Shown here: one piece after another, positions 691 to 63,246 of the stretch
Numbering within the stretch: the stretch's first letter is position 1
Layout of the letters: the number at the start of each line of letters is the position of its first letter
Origin: a virus
Lineage: Duplodnaviria; Caudoviricetes
IMG/VR virus record: IMGVR_UViG_3300010163_000019
Location: 1 to 64,000 of that record
Reading direction: 5' to 3' (one strand)
Length of the DNA: 64,000 nucleotides
Notes under the pieces: generated by a model
Database searches by the model: none
What the model was told of the DNA's origin: nothing
What the model saw: the letters and a program-made list of their open reading frames with translations, nothing else
Program-made: the position numbers and the translations under genes

Positions 691-719
691 ATTATACTTA
701 TCTATTCAGGCTATGTCAA
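691..719 (-). promoter_or_regulatory. consensus sigma70 promoter, antisense
   Basis: Minus strand TTGACA(719-714)-17 bp-TATAAT(696-691). Confidence 0.8.
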
Positions 720-18334: not shown

Positions 18335-18444
18335 AAACAGGGTGGAAGATTTATTTACATATTCATGATATAAAGGCGCAGAAATGAGTTTATGCTTTCT
18401 CATTAATAAAAAAGCAGTAAAAAATTATGATTGGAGGTAATGAT

Positions 18445-19467
18445 ATGCAGCAAGCATTAGTATTCGTAAATAATTCAGATAGTGATAATACAGAAAGAAA
18501 AATATGCGTATATCAAGGAGTAACTTATTTTATCAATACTGAGGACAACACAGGAAAAAATTATATTGAAGTTAGAGGAACAAAGAAATATCTTGATAAA
18601 AATGGAAAGGTTTCTAATAAGCAGCCAAATACACGAAATGTAAGGGACTGCATAAATTCATATGAGGATATGCATAAAATACATGATTACTTAATACAAC
18701 GGAAAAAGTGGAATATATATTTATTGTTTATATTAAATTATAATTTAAGCAGACGAATTGGAGACCTTTTGAAAGCAAAATGGTCAGATTTTTTTGATGA
18801 AGACTGGAAAATTAAAAAGTCATGGGAACTGATAGAGGAAAAAACACATAAGAAAAATGAGATAAAGATTAATAAGGCAGTAAGATATGCATTTAAAACT
18901 TATTTTGAAAAGGAAACTGCCTTTGAGAAAACAGATAAAAACTATTATGAACCAATATTTAAACAGCTTTATGGAACCCATAAAGGCAAGGTTCTTTCCC
19001 AGGAAAGGTATAGACAGATTTTAATAAAAATAGGAGATGAACTAGGACTTGAGAAAAAAGTACGTTCTCATGGTTTTAGGCGGGGAGCATTTACAAATAT
19101 GATTGAGTCGCATCCAAATGATCCAAAAGCGAAAATTACAGTGATGAATATATCAAAACATGGAAGTGAATCAACGCTGAGTCATTATATAGGAGAAGAA
19201 GATAAGGAAAAGGAACGATATCTTGATGATTTAGGTGCTGATTTTGAAAAGTATGTTATAAAGGGAGAAGAAGTTCCATTTCATAAAAAAGTACCACAGG
19301 TAGTCTGTGATACCTCAAAACTTATGGAGTGTATGAGAGATGCAGCATCATATTTTATGATTAAAGGGATAGAAATGTCAAATGAGTCAGATCCCAAAGT
19401 TATTTTGCAAGTGGTAAATGAATCTATGAAAAAGTTAGAGGAAATATTAGAGAATATAACAGAGTAA
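18445..19467 (+). CDS. tyrosine recombinase with complete catalytic set
   Basis: SRRIGDLL (R), EEKT (K), SHGFRR (HxxR), SKHGSESTLSHY (H, Y). Confidence 0.9.
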   Translation: MQQALVFVNNSDSDNTERKICVYQGVTYFINTEDNTGKNYIEVRGTKKYLDKNGKVSNKQPNTRNVRDCINSYEDMHKIHDYLIQRKKWNIYLLFILNYNLSRRIGDLLKAKWSDFFDEDWKIKKSWELIEEKTHKKNEIKINKAVRYAFKTYFEKETAFEKTDKNYYEPIFKQLYGTHKGKVLSQERYRQILIKIGDELGLEKKVRSHGFRRGAFTNMIESHPNDPKAKITVMNISKHGSESTLSHYIGEEDKEKERYLDDLGADFEKYVIKGEEVPFHKKVPQVVCDTSKLMECMRDAASYFMIKGIEMSNESDPKVILQVVNESMKKLEEILENITE

Positions 19468-46862: not shown

Positions 46863-46884
46863 TTCATGATGTAAGGAGGAACTT

Positions 46885-47010
46885 ATGGATATTAGAGAAA
46901 GATTAATTCAGGCATTAGATGATTTTGGTGTTGGAAATGAAATGTATGATGAAACTAATGAGTCTTTGGCAAATTATTTAATAGAGGTAATTGCTGAATT
47001 AAGTCAGTAA
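46885..47010 (+). CDS. small hypothetical protein, 41 aa
   Basis: RBS AGGAGG. Confidence 0.55.
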   Translation: MDIRERLIQALDDFGVGNEMYDETNESLANYLIEVIAELSQ

Positions 47011-47080
47011 TTAGATAATGTTCATTATCAAAAAGTAGAAGTAACAAATAAGCATATGCAAAAATTAAAATAATAAAAAC

Positions 47081-47126
47081 AGGAGGAAATGAGGTTTCTG
47101 CGCAGAATAAATCATGATTTACTCCT
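47081..47126 (+). promoter_or_regulatory. double-palindrome leader element, copy 2
   Basis: AGGAG..TTCTGCGCAGAA..AAATCATGATTT..CTCCT. Confidence 0.7.
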
Positions 47127-47134
47127 AATAAAGA

Positions 47135-48022
47135 ATGGAATATCAAAAGAAAATTAAGTGTGAACTGTATAGGGATTCTATGCAGAATTATAAGAAATAT
47201 GCAATTCATCCTGCTCAGTTAATCATAGCAGACGTTCCTTATAACGTAGGAAATAATTTTTATGGCTCAAATCCGATGTGGTACAACGGAGGAGATAACA
47301 AAAAAGGCGAAAGTAAATTAGCAGGTAAAGCAGCTTTCAACTCTGATTTCAATTTTAATCTGTATGAGTATTTTCATTTTTGTTCCAAGATGCTTAAAAA
47401 GGATGATACAAGACCAGTTCCAAGAGGCAGAAGTAGCGATTCGCCTTGTATGATAGTTTTTTGTTCATTTGAACAGATTCAGACACTTATTAAAGCTGCT
47501 GAAAAACATGGATTTATTCATTACATACCGCTTGTATTCTGTAAGAATTATAGTCCACAGGTGCTTAAAGCAAATATGCGTGTAGTAGGTGCAACAGAAT
47601 ATGCTTTGCTTTTATATCGTGATAAGTTACCTAAATTCAGAAATGGTCTTCAGATTGATGAGAATGGTAAGAATATTCCAGGCACAGGACATATGATTTT
47701 TAACTGGTTTGATGGTGGCAATGAAGACGAATGGGGAAAAACTTATTACAACAACGGTACATATATGATGTGGGAAAAGGATAAGTCAAAGGAAGTTCCT
47801 AAAATCCATCCAGCTCAGAAGCCAGTCGCGGTTTTGAAACGTTTGATTGAGATATTTACCGACCCTGGCGATGTGGTTATTGATCCGTGTGCCGGAAGTG
47901 GAGCTACGTTAAGAGCAGCTTATGAACTTGGTAGAAGTGCTTATGGGTTTGAAATTGACCGTAATTTCTATCAGAGAGCAAAAGATGAGATGTTGAACTT
48001 TGAAAAGGATAATGAAAATTGA
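47135..48022 (+). CDS. N4C/N6A DNA methyltransferase
   Basis: IADVPY, HPAQKP, VIDPCAGSG, YGFEID. Confidence 0.9.
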   Translation: MEYQKKIKCELYRDSMQNYKKYAIHPAQLIIADVPYNVGNNFYGSNPMWYNGGDNKKGESKLAGKAAFNSDFNFNLYEYFHFCSKMLKKDDTRPVPRGRSSDSPCMIVFCSFEQIQTLIKAAEKHGFIHYIPLVFCKNYSPQVLKANMRVVGATEYALLLYRDKLPKFRNGLQIDENGKNIPGTGHMIFNWFDGGNEDEWGKTYYNNGTYMMWEKDKSKEVPKIHPAQKPVAVLKRLIEIFTDPGDVVIDPCAGSGATLRAAYELGRSAYGFEIDRNFYQRAKDEMLNFEKDNEN

Positions 48023-48810
48023 AAGAAGAATTGATACAAGATAATGGAATCTACAATTATGATGCATCTGATTTTATTCATGCACTATATGAGGATTATG
48101 GAGATGAAAGTATAGACATGTTTCTTTGTGATTTTCCCTATACATTTAAAGGAAAGAACAGAGTGACAGCAAATAAATGGGATTTACCAATAGATGATAA
48201 AGAGTTTTTTGAAATTGCTATGAAAATGCTAACACCAGAGGGGTGTATAGCATTAACAGCAGGGCAACCATTTACAAGTTATTTAGTAATGAATCATCTT
48301 GACTGTTTTAAATATGAATGGATTTGGGAGAAAGATAATGGTAGCAATTTTTCAAGTGTGAATCATCAACCATTTAAGGTTCACGAATCTGTATTAATTT
48401 TTGGGAAAGCTCCAACTACATATAATAAAGCAGAAAGATATATGAAGTATAATCCGCAATTTACAGATGGAAAGCCTTATAAGATGAAGAGAAGTGGAAT
48501 GACTGAGAATTTGGCTACTTCATCTGGTTATGAAAGAACAAATGGAGAATATGAAGGTAAACGTTATCCAAGAAGTGTTGTCAAATTTAACTTGGAAAAG
48601 GGACTTCATCCTACACAAAAACCTACAAAATTATTTGAGTATCTCATTAAAACTTATACTAACGAAGGCGGGCGGGTTGTTGATGTGTGTTGTGGTAGTG
48701 GAACAACTGCTAAAGCGGCACAGAACACAGGAAGAGTTTATATTGTAAATGATAATAATTTGGATTATGTGAGAATCTCTGAAAAACGATTAGGTGTTAT
48801 TAATGGTTGA
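48019..48810 (+). CDS. N4C/N6A DNA methyltransferase
   Basis: CDFPY, HPTQKP, VDVCCGSGTT; stop inside site 48807. Confidence 0.9.
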   Translation: MKEELIQDNGIYNYDASDFIHALYEDYGDESIDMFLCDFPYTFKGKNRVTANKWDLPIDDKEFFEIAMKMLTPEGCIALTAGQPFTSYLVMNHLDCFKYEWIWEKDNGSNFSSVNHQPFKVHESVLIFGKAPTTYNKAERYMKYNPQFTDGKPYKMKRSGMTENLATSSGYERTNGEYEGKRYPRSVVKFNLEKGLHPTQKPTKLFEYLIKTYTNEGGRVVDVCCGSGTTAKAAQNTGRVYIVNDNNLDYVRISEKRLGVING

Positions 48811-48832
48811 ATCATCGGTTTTATTTAAATAT

Positions 48833-48862
48833 AAAAATGATGCCCCATCCTGCCAGGGCATT
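48833..48862 (-). terminator. intrinsic terminator of the minus-strand cassette
   Basis: Minus strand atgccct/ggggcat stem then cattttt. Confidence 0.65.
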
Positions 48863-48867
48863 GTCTG

Positions 48868-49014
48868 TTAAAAATTGCTTTGGTATAAGAACAGTAAAAC
48901 TATTCTTATTATTAAGTAGATAATGTTTAGTAATACACATATTGCCTTCAACTCCATATAAATTTTGTTGATTCTGTTTATGGTACTCTTCACAATTAAT
49001 TTAATTTCACGCAT
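48868..49014 (-). CDS. 48-aa peptide with hydrophobic C-terminal helix (not in ORF track)
   Basis: AGGAGG RBS; MREIKLIVKSTINRINKIYMELKAICVLLNIIYLIIRIVLLFLYQSNF. Confidence 0.7.
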   Translation of the reverse strand: MREIKLIVKSTINRINKIYMELKAICVLLNIIYLIIRIVLLFLYQSNF

Positions 49015-49247
49015 ATGCACATACCTCCTCAGATTTTATTCTGGGATGGCACATATAAGAAGGTATTCCGAAATCTCAACTTGCGACTTTTCTTCTCTTA
49101 TTGAGCAGGATATGTAGACAAATTCAATAAGATACATTCCCTAAGCTGGTTTTTTGGTAAAACATTTTTATGTACAACCAATACGCAAGATACATAAATA
49201 GTTCAATGCGTGAGTCAGATTACGGATTGCCTACAACCTTAGTTAAT

Positions 49248-49276
49248 ATTATATGCATAAATTTGATTAGTGTAAA
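49248..49276 (-). promoter_or_regulatory. sigma70 promoter for the minus-strand cassette
   Basis: TTTACA(49276-49271)-17-TATAAT(49253-49248). Confidence 0.7.
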
Positions 49277-49398
49277 GAGGTTTTATAAAATTTTGCTTTT
49301 ATTGGGTGACGTGAAAGAGGTGGTTACAGATTAAAAAGGAAGAAAATTTCTTAGAAGAAAACTTCAATATAAGTTTTACTTGGTATCAAAAAATAGAA

Positions 49399-49644
49399 AT
49401 GAAAATTATGAGACTTGTTGAATTGTTTAAGGTGGCATGTCATAGACCATACATGATTAAATCAATTCTAAGTATGAGATGCCCTCATTGTGGCAGATGG
49501 TTTAGTTTCTCAACAATATCGCAACAGAGAACACAATATCAGGATAAATATTCTAATTATTTTTGTGGATGTAAATATTGTCGTGAAGAAAATGCTAATT
49601 ATTGGAATGATATGTGGAATGAGTATTATAGTAGCAGATTATAA
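49399..49644 (+). CDS. hypothetical zinc-binding protein
   Basis: CPHCG..C..C. Confidence 0.6.
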   Translation: MKIMRLVELFKVACHRPYMIKSILSMRCPHCGRWFSFSTISQQRTQYQDKYSNYFCGCKYCREENANYWNDMWNEYYSSRL

Positions 49645-49666
49645 GAGGAAAAGGAGAAAGAAATTT

Positions 49667-50218
49667 ATGAATAGGAAAACAAATTGGAAGTTACCGTTAA
49701 TCATTGGGACAGGTGTTGTTGCCGTTATCTTACTTTGTGTATTTGGAGTACAGAGTTCGCAGAATAGAGCTTTTGCTTTGGAGGAACAGGTAAACACAGC
49801 ACAGTCGGATATTAAAGTACAGGAGAAGCGAAGAGTAGATTTAGTGTACAACCTTGCTGATTGTGTAAAGCAGTATGATAAACATGAATCTGAAACTCTT
49901 ACAGCTATTGCAGAGGGGCGTGGATCAGCAGGTGATATTGAAAATGTAACAACAGCCATTACGGCAGTTTCAGAAGCATATCCTGAGTTGAAGTCAAATG
50001 AAAACTATAAGCAGCTTATGAATGAATTGGCAATGACTGAAAACCTGATTGCAGAATATAGAAGTAATTATAATAAACAGGTCAAGGAATACAACAGATA
50101 TGTTCGCAAGTTTCCAATAAGAATGTTTCTGAATATGCTTGGATATGAGGTGCAGAATTATACATATCTTGATTATGATGCCCCTTCTGACGCACCAAAA
50201 AATCTTTTTGGAGAATAA
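49667..50218 (+). CDS. lemA: LemA family protein
   Basis: N-terminal TM; RRVDL+.NL..V..Y..HE; EAYPELKSNENY..L..TEN.I..R..YN. Confidence 0.9.
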   Translation: MNRKTNWKLPLIIGTGVVAVILLCVFGVQSSQNRAFALEEQVNTAQSDIKVQEKRRVDLVYNLADCVKQYDKHESETLTAIAEGRGSAGDIENVTTAITAVSEAYPELKSNENYKQLMNELAMTENLIAEYRSNYNKQVKEYNRYVRKFPIRMFLNMLGYEVQNYTYLDYDAPSDAPKNLFGE

Positions 50219-50220
50219 AT

Positions 50221-50982
50221 ATGAGTAGATACAGTTATAGAAAACGTGGGTTTGATTTTGGCGATTTTGAAATTACCAAAAGAGAAATTTTGGCAAGTAT
50301 TTCTATTATAGCTGTAATGTTACTTATTGGTGTTCTGATTTCTAGCAAGATTTCAGAACACAAGCTAGACGCAAATGAAGTCTATAACAAAGCGGTGAAA
50401 ATAGATAATACAGATTTGTTTCAGTATGGCATGGACACAAATGTAGGTAATGCTTTTGTGTATGGTGATTTAGTAGCAGTTGATATAGTTACATATCCTG
50501 AAATTGGTGGAGAGTATATGTATATTGAAAAAGTGAAAGAGAAATATACAAAGCACACTCGTACTGTTACATATAAGGACAGTAATGGCAAGACGCATAC
50601 TAAAAAAGAAACATATTGGACATGGGACAGAGTAAGCAGTGAAGATAAGAAATGTCAGGAAATTTCTTTTTGTGGAATTACTTTTAATAGCAATAAGATT
50701 GATTTACCAAGCACAGATTATATTGATACTATCAAAGAATCAAGCCATATAAGATATAAATATTATGGTATAGGGACAAATTATAAAGGAACAATATTTA
50801 CAGATTTGAGAGATCAGACTATTTCAGATAATACTCAATTTTATAATAATAAGAATATAGAAGAAACAGTTGAATATTTAGAATCTGGCGGTGGAGTGAT
50901 TTTATTCTGGATATTTTGGATTGTACTGATTTGTGGTTGTGTGTTTGGATTTTATTATACAGAGAATAAGTGTTTGGAATAA
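50221..50982 (+). CDS. membrane protein (2 TM) downstream of LemA
   Basis: Hydrophobic segments near both ends. Confidence 0.75.
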   Translation: MSRYSYRKRGFDFGDFEITKREILASISIIAVMLLIGVLISSKISEHKLDANEVYNKAVKIDNTDLFQYGMDTNVGNAFVYGDLVAVDIVTYPEIGGEYMYIEKVKEKYTKHTRTVTYKDSNGKTHTKKETYWTWDRVSSEDKKCQEISFCGITFNSNKIDLPSTDYIDTIKESSHIRYKYYGIGTNYKGTIFTDLRDQTISDNTQFYNNKNIEETVEYLESGGGVILFWIFWIVLICGCVFGFYYTENKCLE

Positions 50983-62029: not shown

Positions 62030-62103
62030 AAATATAGAGTTTATTTATATAGAGGTTGTTTAAATGCAACCTCACAAATTCAACATATAAGGAGAATAAT
62101 AAA

Positions 62104-63246
62104 ATGGGAAAATACGGTAAAAAGAACCATGTAAAGTTAGACCCTTTGGCATATAATATTTGCCTTCTTGGGGAAAGTAAAGTTGGTAAAACTACTTTGA
62201 TTAAAGAAGTCTGCGAGAAACTTTCTGGCGAGGATGGATATATGTTCCTAGAGTGCGGACAGGAACGTGGTGCAGATGCTATTGAAGGAATTAATCATGT
62301 AAATTGTCCTGAGTGGAATATGGATTATGATGAAATTACAAACAGTGTTGGGTTTGAAGATGTATGTGATGACATTATTGATAATAAGACATCTGAATAT
62401 CCAGATTTGAAAGTAGTTATTATTGATACATATGATCAGTTGATTAATATTGCAGAAAGTGAATCAATAAGACTGTGGAATAGGGATAATCCAGACAAGA
62501 GAACAAATAGTATTAATGCAGCATGGGGTGGTTTTGGTAAAGGAGAAAAGAAAGCAATTGAAATTATGTTTGATAAGATTGCAGAGTTAAGAAGTGTTGG
62601 AGTATCGACTATTATTATTGGACACATTAAGACAAAAGATATTTCTGATCCTGTATCTGGTGAGACATATCAGATTCTTACATCAGACCAGCAGCAGAAT
62701 TATTTCAATGCACTTAAAAAGAATCTTCATTTTCTTGGTCTTGCTTATATTGACAGACAAATTGTTAAAGAGAAGATAGGAAAGAAAAATATTGTTACAA
62801 ACAAAGAGGAACAGGTTAATAAAGTTAAAGGCGAGTCAAGAAAAATTAAGTTTAGAGATGATAATTTCTGTGTAGATAGTGGTTCTAGGTTTGCAGAAAT
62901 TATTGATGAAATTGATTTGGATGCAGAACAATTTATTACGGCTATTACAGATGCAATCAAAGCTGAACAGTCCAAGTCTGGTAAATCTTTTGATGAAACC
63001 AAGGCAGAGCAGGAAGCAAAAGAAGCGGAAAAGTTAAAAGAGATTACAAAGGCAGAACAAAATAAGAAGGAAGCGAAGAAACTGGAAGACGTAGTATCAA
63101 GGATTACTGATTTTATCAAAGAGAATAAGTCAAATATGGATAAGATCAAGCCTATTATTGCAAAGTCAAAGGAACTTGGATATGATAATCCGACTCTGAT
63201 TACAGATATTGACGATGCCAATAAGGTATTAGCACTGATTTCATAA
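62104..63246 (+). CDS. AAA_24-type P-loop ATPase (Sak4/YorG-like)
   Basis: Walker A GESKVGKT, Walker B VIIDT; AAWGGFGKG. Confidence 0.8.
   Translation: MGKYGKKNHVKLDPLAYNICLLGESKVGKTTLIKEVCEKLSGEDGYMFLECGQERGADAIEGINHVNCPEWNMDYDEITNSVGFEDVCDDIIDNKTSEYPDLKVVIIDTYDQLINIAESESIRLWNRDNPDKRTNSINAAWGGFGKGEKKAIEIMFDKIAELRSVGVSTIIIGHIKTKDISDPVSGETYQILTSDQQQNYFNALKKNLHFLGLAYIDRQIVKEKIGKKNIVTNKEEQVNKVKGESRKIKFRDDNFCVDSGSRFAEIIDEIDLDAEQFITAITDAIKAEQSKSGKSFDETKAEQEAKEAEKLKEITKAEQNKKEAKKLEDVVSRITDFIKENKSNMDKIKPIIAKSKELGYDNPTLITDIDDANKVLALIS

Follow-up and report, generated by a model that had tools for sequence, protein, structure and literature searches.

A counter-oriented cassette for a predicted membrane peptide between two palindromic junction sites of a large temperate gut phage

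Architecture of the cassette and its peptide

We analyzed the first 64 kb (hereafter the window) of a 73-kb IMG/VR virus record, IMGVR_UViG_3300010163_000019, that is rated 44% complete. Open reading frames (ORFs) of at least 90 aa that overlap no other ORF lie nearly all on the plus strand of this window. A 460-nt cassette at positions 48825-49284 is read on the minus strand, against all neighbouring genes, and encodes a 48-aa peptide. The cassette lies between two 18-bp junction sites. The left site, TTGAAT-CATCGG-TTTTAT (48807..48824), has the TGA stop codon of the second of two adjacent DNA methyltransferase (MTase) genes at its bases 2-4. The right site, ATAAAA-TTTTGC-TTTTAT (49285..49302), is an exact copy of the strict motif ATAAAA-N6-TTTTAT and lies upstream of the cassette promoter.

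The initial annotation had placed a promoter, a leader, a ribosome-binding site, a peptide ORF and a terminator in this interval, and all of them are present at those positions, co-oriented on the minus strand. The promoter, TTTACA-17-TATAAT (49276..49248), matches the consensus at 11/12 positions and is one of four minus-strand matches of at least 11/12 in the 64 kb (one of nine counting both strands). Transcription would start near 49241, giving a 5' leader of 227 nt (49015..49241). The Shine-Dalgarno (SD) sequence GAGGAGG (49030-49024) is located 9 nt ahead of an ATG at 49014. From there the ORF runs for 48 codons (49014-48871) to a stop at 48870-48868. It is followed by an intrinsic terminator (48830..48861, minus strand), which consists of an 8-bp hairpin (48861-48840, four G-C pairs and a 6-nt loop) and a T run (48839-48830). 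The gap from the T run to the left site is 5 nt and that from the -35 element to the right site is 8 nt, so the description of the cassette as bounded exactly by the two sites holds. A GTG six bases upstream of the ATG was discarded as an alternative start; it sits too near the SD sequence, and the sole homologue of the peptide also starts at the ATG.

The ribosome site is predicted to be sequestered in an SD-locking hairpin (49024..49049, minus strand). In this hairpin, as predicted for the full-length mRNA, GAGGAGG pairs across a short loop with CCAUCCC (49049-49043), an element 13 nt upstream of the SD sequence, at probabilities of 0.91-1.00. Rfam, at gathering thresholds over the whole window, has no match to the leader, and a search at E <= 10 over 48600-49500 gave only two snoRNA-like matches, which we dismissed as chance. 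Two candidate ORFs inside the leader (33 aa and 27 aa) were also rejected, both being without a usable ribosome site. At its other end, cassette transcription converges with that of the MTase genes over a shared hairpin. Read on the plus strand, the terminator stem is weaker and has a T-poor tail, and would be at most a leaky stop for MTase transcripts.

The 48-aa peptide is predicted to combine a basic, amphipathic N-terminal half (net charge +4 over residues 1-24) with a membrane span, including one Arg, in its C-terminal part (Kyte-Doolittle hydropathy 2.85 over residues 25-43). AlphaFold2 models it as one helix covering residues 2-47, with a predicted local distance difference test score of 94. 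Among 5.8 billion clusters and 1.84 billion representatives we identified a sole homologue, P0001, which is 43 aa long, 81% identical and begins at the same Met. P0001 differs by eight mostly conservative substitutions, seven of which are single-base changes, and has its stop at codon 44. Two ENA contigs encode P0001, the longest of 363,076 bp.

Searches with tblastn found no match to the peptide in 50,697 GenBank phage records and none in plasmids. Comparison of the cassette region with GenBank phages by blastn returned the MTases only, and back-translated scans of viral, metagenome and genome contigs yielded no copy of the peptide gene. The cassette DNA has no blastn or tblastx match in 2.1 Mb of related loci. 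The cassette was likewise not found in 14 related records, in a search whose positive control worked, and the related loci and records searched contain no second copy of its DNA in either orientation. The ESM Atlas provided no informative neighbour for the peptide (best score 0.80).

Junction sites and the slots between them

We identified five exact copies of ATAAAA-N6-TTTTAT in the window, including the right site, where 0.2 are expected. A broader motif, TRAAW-N6-TTTYA, has 41 strand-hits at 25 places (13.7 expected in the window). The left site is an exact match to the broader motif and has three mismatches to the strict one; considered by itself it would have passed for chance, and it is its orthologues in six relatives that identify it as real. 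The sites are closely tied to gene ends: 16/25 overlap a plus-strand stop codon at bases 2-4 or fall at most 11 nt past one, and most lie a few to 30 nt ahead of the next start codon. Their arms vary at degenerate positions. A promoter role was rejected, as only 3/25 lie near any plus-strand promoter-like match. We also rejected RNA or DNA hairpins, since the arms show no covariation (Fisher p = 0.09 and 0.41).

Palindromes of 18 bp with the consensus TTGAAA-N6-TTTCAA occur clade-wide. They span 3141-59503 of the window and are found in L025, L034, L139, L187, L193, L194, L212, L219, L130, L164 and L182. Their 6-nt spacers are specific to genome position and are kept between phages. The motif is dense in the closest relatives only.

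The relatives were gathered via neighbouring genes and are phage records of 100-190 kb. Several of them (G002, G004, G005, G006, G007 and G010) are assigned to the provirus class, and the phage group is therefore temperate. The host phage of the cassette is a large temperate gut phage, of 100-190 kb by its relatives.

Both sites recur in these relatives. Sites with the CATCGG spacer are found at the equivalent position in L025, L139/L211, L193, L187, G009 and G010. Sites with the TTTTGC spacer are found in L025, L034/L225, L139/L211, L193, L187, L168/G010, G009, G011 and G012, and where relatives carry both, TTTTGC lies further downstream on the same strand as CATCGG. Six relatives keep the two sites with identical spacers, order and orientation around entirely different interiors. 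The window has the shortest interval between the sites, 460 nt; the relatives have intervals of about 1.4 kb (G009), 2.3 kb (L187), 2.7 kb (L139/L211), 2.9 kb (L025), 4.1 kb (G010) and 4.2 kb (L193). In the relatives the interiors are made up of plus-strand genes, none of them related to the cassette; among themselves these interiors share only patches of similarity. The slot-specific, asymmetric spacers CATCGG and TTTTGC are conserved across the clade.

The left flank varies in a similar way. The gene directly 5' of CATCGG encodes an N6_N4-family DNA MTase in the window and L139, a D12-class DNA MTase in L025 and L187, and an SNF2-family helicase in L193. Across these five records the slot to the left of CATCGG always holds DNA-modification genes of differing families (N6_N4 MTases, D12-class Dam MTases, or an MTase plus an SNF2 helicase), a pattern of non-orthologous replacement within one slot.

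Sites with a third spacer, ACCTGA, join three left flanks (A, B and C) to two right flanks (X and Y), and all six combinations were seen. Pairs of contexts with a single flank in common have identical spacers in 20/20 and 23/27 cases. Sites with the same spacer are thus conserved while their flanks assort independently, and the sites are therefore, on this comparative evidence, real module junctions, with exchange taking place between sites of the same slot. The proposal in the initial annotation that the sites are insertion boundaries agrees with these data, since six relatives with other interiors have their breakpoints at the sites and not away from them. None of the relatives examined has a single site joining the MTase straight to 49303 onward.

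The initial annotation had also argued that symmetric sites would allow either orientation, and this we do not find. Only the arms are symmetric. The two spacers are asymmetric and unlike each other, neither is a palindrome, and their orientation is fixed in all relatives, so a simple inversion between the two sites is not expected. No opposite-orientation copy was found in the related loci and records.

The cassette and MTase genes belong to a variable island of 2.8 kb (46863..49666, plus strand) that comprises a 41-aa ORF, MTase 1 (47135-48022), MTase 2 (48019-48810), the cassette and an 81-aa zinc-finger ORF (49399-49644). Nine more distant relatives, which have no junction sites, carry a PAPS-reductase-like gene followed after about 85 nt by LemA. 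They are without the stretch 46863-49666, and the entire stretch is therefore an accessory island. The PAPS-reductase-like/LemA gap of these nine relatives contains a terminator-like hairpin.

Not all exchange events use the sites, because MTase 2 is extra relative to L139 and its left breakpoint (48010-48019) has no junction site. L139 has the CATCGG site immediately after MTase 1 (95% aa identity), at 1241-1278 (compared with window 48010-48022), whereas in the window the insertion of MTase 2 separates the two.

Two routes of exchange could operate at the sites. In one, a dimeric DNA-binding protein would use them as operators, and their sequences would double as short homologies; the window encodes a Sak4-like annealing protein (62056-63246). 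In the other, they would be genuine core sites for a recombinase. The window encodes a tyrosine recombinase (18427-19467), which is not conserved in site-bearing relatives. This weighs against the simplest recombinase model, and we do not retain the enzyme as a conserved partner of the sites. Every record, even the one that lacks sites, contains tyrosine recombinases (Pfam accession PF00589), so their presence is not diagnostic. A more elaborate version, which we regard as quite unlikely, holds that the palindromes are core sites of a phage-borne exchange system in which the spacer is an address, so that only same-slot sites of co-resident phages recombine, and counter-oriented cassettes for toxin-like peptides spread through the slots as selfish cargo. 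Such a system would parallel, in nature, the recombinase-mediated cassette exchange that uses heterospecific lox sites.

Several other features were observed around the slot. Just past the right site, 49303-49335 holds a strong ribosome site, AAGAGGTGG, and a 4-codon GTG mini-ORF. A gene of about 90 aa (MEELE...) begins at the corresponding place in L025, L187 and L184, and the mini-ORF looks like the stub of a lost gene. Downstream of the island, LemA and a neighbouring 253-aa membrane protein (phrog_3886) occupy 49667-50982; the pair is kept in 229 viral contigs and is missing from L139 and L187, where a radical-SAM-like gene region comes sooner after the TTTTGC slot. Far from the cassette, a perfect 12/12 promoter-like sequence, TTGACA-17-TATAAT (691-719, minus strand), is aimed leftward over a small plus-strand ORF (332-556), and no minus-strand ORF with a ribosome site was seen there.

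A second cassette and the proposed role of the module

We identified a second counter-oriented cassette in two relatives, L155 (5245-5583) and L229 (2907-3232), which encodes an unrelated 54-aa peptide. Its order is a junction site, 9 nt, a promoter (TTTACT-17-TATAAT or TACAAT, together TAYAAT), an SD hairpin, the 54-aa ORF, a terminator and a second site with the spacer TTGGCT. The SD-locking hairpin pairs CCTCCT with AGGAGG in one phage and CCTCCA with TGGAGG in the other, a compensatory change. The 54-aa peptide has an N-terminal membrane span and a lysine-rich tail. It has 14 homologues at 72-96% identity, with a ratio of nonsynonymous to synonymous substitution rates (dN/dS) of 0.18.

The combined site-and-promoter pattern has only three matches in 2.2 Mb, where we estimated about 0.2 by chance. 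All three occurrences are counter-oriented and are followed by a membrane-peptide ORF. In all three cassettes the junction site falls at about -45 to -62 of the promoter, which suggests that the site also serves the adjacent promoter, as a regulator site or an UP-like element. Two unrelated peptide genes have converged on one layout beside a junction site, which suggests that the site and the promoter 8-9 nt from it are functionally linked. The second cassette is the strongest indirect support for the 48-aa peptide gene. A weak, divergent promoter-like sequence on the plus strand of the window, TTGATT-17-TAAAAT (49263..49291), matches at 9/12 positions, a score common by chance. Its -10 element falls within the right junction site, and it has no counterpart next to the 54-aa cassette in L155.

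Morons are extra genes with their own promoter and terminator, located between genes that are adjacent in relatives (the concept of Hendrix and Juhala). We favour, with moderate confidence, the reading that the 48-aa cassette is an autonomous, counter-oriented module of this type in an exchangeable slot, expressed from the prophage and encoding a toxin-like, addiction or exclusion membrane peptide. The peptide gene itself is probably moron-type, toxin-like or exclusion-like, and prophage-expressed. The module would have arrived by exchange at the two junctions. It would carry its own promoter and terminator because it faces against the transcription of its neighbours. In the prophage, where plus-strand early transcription is expected to be off, the minus-strand unit would be transcribed, and the SD lock would throttle translation of the peptide. 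During lytic growth, read-through from the MTase genes would collide with the unit, run antisense to it and silence it. The peptide would insert in the host membrane with its N-terminus inside, as a single-helix, tail-anchored protein, and may act there as a toxin-like, addiction or exclusion factor.

Several observations weigh against this reading. First, the RNA features are modest by statistical comparison: the leader fold is not significant (z = -1.46), and neither is the SD lock when compared with shuffled upstream sequence (0.115). Second, the peptide has just the one homologue among the billions of sequences searched and no family match in Pfam, PHROGs, NCBIfam or PADLOC, toxin families included. 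ORFs of about 50 codons are common in this AT-rich stretch (three in 500 nt). Third, no dedicated antisense promoter was found; the plus strand of 48825-49262 contains no match of at least 9/12, although a consensus scan could miss a weak promoter. In addition, the polarity of the peptide, with its basic N-terminus and hydrophobic C-terminus, is the reverse of classical type I toxins. Finally, its expression timing, topology and host effect are all points that we infer.

One alternative is that the cassette is a genuine type I toxin-antitoxin system, in which a plus-strand antisense RNA or the MTase 3' read-through neutralises the toxin mRNA, and which stabilises the prophage or aborts superinfection. 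The small, hydrophobic peptide, the long 5' untranslated region and the sequestered SD sequence would all fit, as would transcription that converges with the MTase genes over the shared hairpin. The 54-aa sister peptide, with its N-terminal span and lysine-rich tail, is shaped like clostridial prophage toxins, and SPbeta carries two such systems, yonT/SR6 and bsrG/SR4 (PMC5848175). Set against these likenesses are the reversed polarity, the missing toxin-family match and the empty plus-strand promoter scan; an antisense promoter candidate in L229 is not conserved in L155. By that scan, antisense RNA to the cassette would come only from MTase read-through. We consider a complete type I system unlikely.

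A second alternative is that the unit works as an RNA or through the act of transcription, as a counter-oriented promoter-terminator insulator or as antisense RNA that stops MTase read-through from entering downstream genes, with the ORF incidental. Over half of the transcript consists of the untranslated leader, the module is placed precisely between two blocks of transcription, and the ORF is nearly an orphan in a region where open frames of 50 codons are frequent. The homologue and ORF data by themselves would leave an appreciable minority chance, roughly a quarter, that the ORF is incidental. However, the ORF has a consensus SD sequence at ideal spacing from its ATG, and P0001 keeps the frame and start codon with conservative changes. 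The parallel cassette is clearly protein-coding by its dN/dS and its homologues, and no Rfam family matches the cassette RNA. We judge this explanation doubtful, to about the same degree as the toxin-antitoxin system.

Decay or neutral drift of a fragment left after loss of the slot's plus-strand genes, with signal-like motifs arising by chance, is very unlikely. In its favour, no other of the seven slot interiors compared is as small, the right site is followed by the 4-codon stub and its strong ribosome site, and in AT-rich DNA one isolated match to a promoter or terminator is no rarity. However, neither any slot content nor the 2.1 Mb of related loci resembles the cassette, even at the tblastx level, the five co-oriented signals of the cassette stand in the correct order and spacing, and its site-to-promoter geometry is shared with an independent cassette.

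The cassette is a concrete case of the gain and retention of accessory genes by large temperate gut phages, in addressable slots bordered by palindromes. It illustrates that a gene set against the flow of transcription survives only with its own promoter, a translational lock and a terminator. The convergence of the two cassettes also suggests that prophages carry a class of small membrane peptides which escapes current annotation. Toxins or exclusion factors, if that is what these peptides are, would matter for the stability of prophages and for competition between phages in the gut.

Comparison with known systems

Integron cassettes are promoterless and co-oriented, are bounded by attC sites of 57-141 bp, and depend on an IntI/attI/Pc platform. 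Like them, the phage modules are discrete and separated by imperfect inverted-repeat sites. Unlike them, the sites are 18 bp long, the 48-aa module is reversed and brings its own promoter, and we identified no IntI/attI/Pc platform. We therefore rejected the sites as integron attC.

The sites also resemble the promoter early stem-loop (PeSL) elements of T4-type phages, which combine a promoter with a terminator stem-loop and act as shuffling points (PMC2839356, PMC4122927). Both are short, conserved intergenic motifs, repeated through hyperplastic regions at the borders of shuffled modules. In contrast to PeSLs, the 18-bp palindromes are not tied to sigma-70-like promoters, their arms do not covary and their spacers are slot-specific.

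Repeated operators offer a further parallel, in copy number and position. In SPbeta, the repeated operator SPBRE is bound by MrpR and occurs at the promoter of the toxin gene spbT/yonT (PMC10516654). Cluster A mycobacteriophages carry asymmetric stoperators (PMC6550527). As in these systems, about 25 copies of the junction site lie in short intergenic gaps along one direction of transcription. The likeness to SPBRE extends to a tyrosine-recombinase-fold gene in the window and to the one SPbeta copy at a toxin-gene promoter. However, the window recombinase is not conserved in site-bearing relatives and has no sequence match to MrpR in a PDB search. Unlike stoperators, the sites are palindromic.

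For clostridial type I toxins, among them C. difficile phage toxins, long 5' untranslated regions, sequestration of the ribosome site and location in prophages have been described (PMC6563280). The cassette shares with the type I toxins of Firmicute prophages a long 5' untranslated region, a sequestered ribosome site, a prophage setting and a peptide of less than 60 aa that is predicted to insert in the membrane. At 48 aa, with a hydropathy of 2.85 and a single predicted helix, it is a small hydrophobic membrane peptide as these toxins are. The sister 54-aa cassette adds the typical hydrophobic N-terminus and lysine-rich tail. Unlike known type I toxins, the 48-aa peptide matches none of their families (Fst/Ldr, TxpA/BsrG, Hok and others) in Pfam, NCBIfam, PADLOC or PHROGs, no antitoxin RNA gene was found beside it, and its polarity is opposite. 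Superinfection-exclusion families (Sie, Ltp, Imm and similar) gave no match in PHROGs or PADLOC. By analogy, a type I toxin or exclusion role for the peptide is plausible.

The closest structural parallel is the moron. The cassette has its own promoter and terminator, lies in an accessory island of a phage with proviral relatives, and is missing at the same position in six relatives that carry the same two sites. It differs from morons in being counter-oriented, in its 227-nt leader with a locked ribosome site, and in having conserved palindromic borders instead of arbitrary breakpoints. The cassette fits the structural definition of a moron, and its logic is that of a moron with type-I-toxin-like RNA features. 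As a single gene it is of modest novelty; the pair of convergent cassettes, tied to slot-specific sites, is a new variant.

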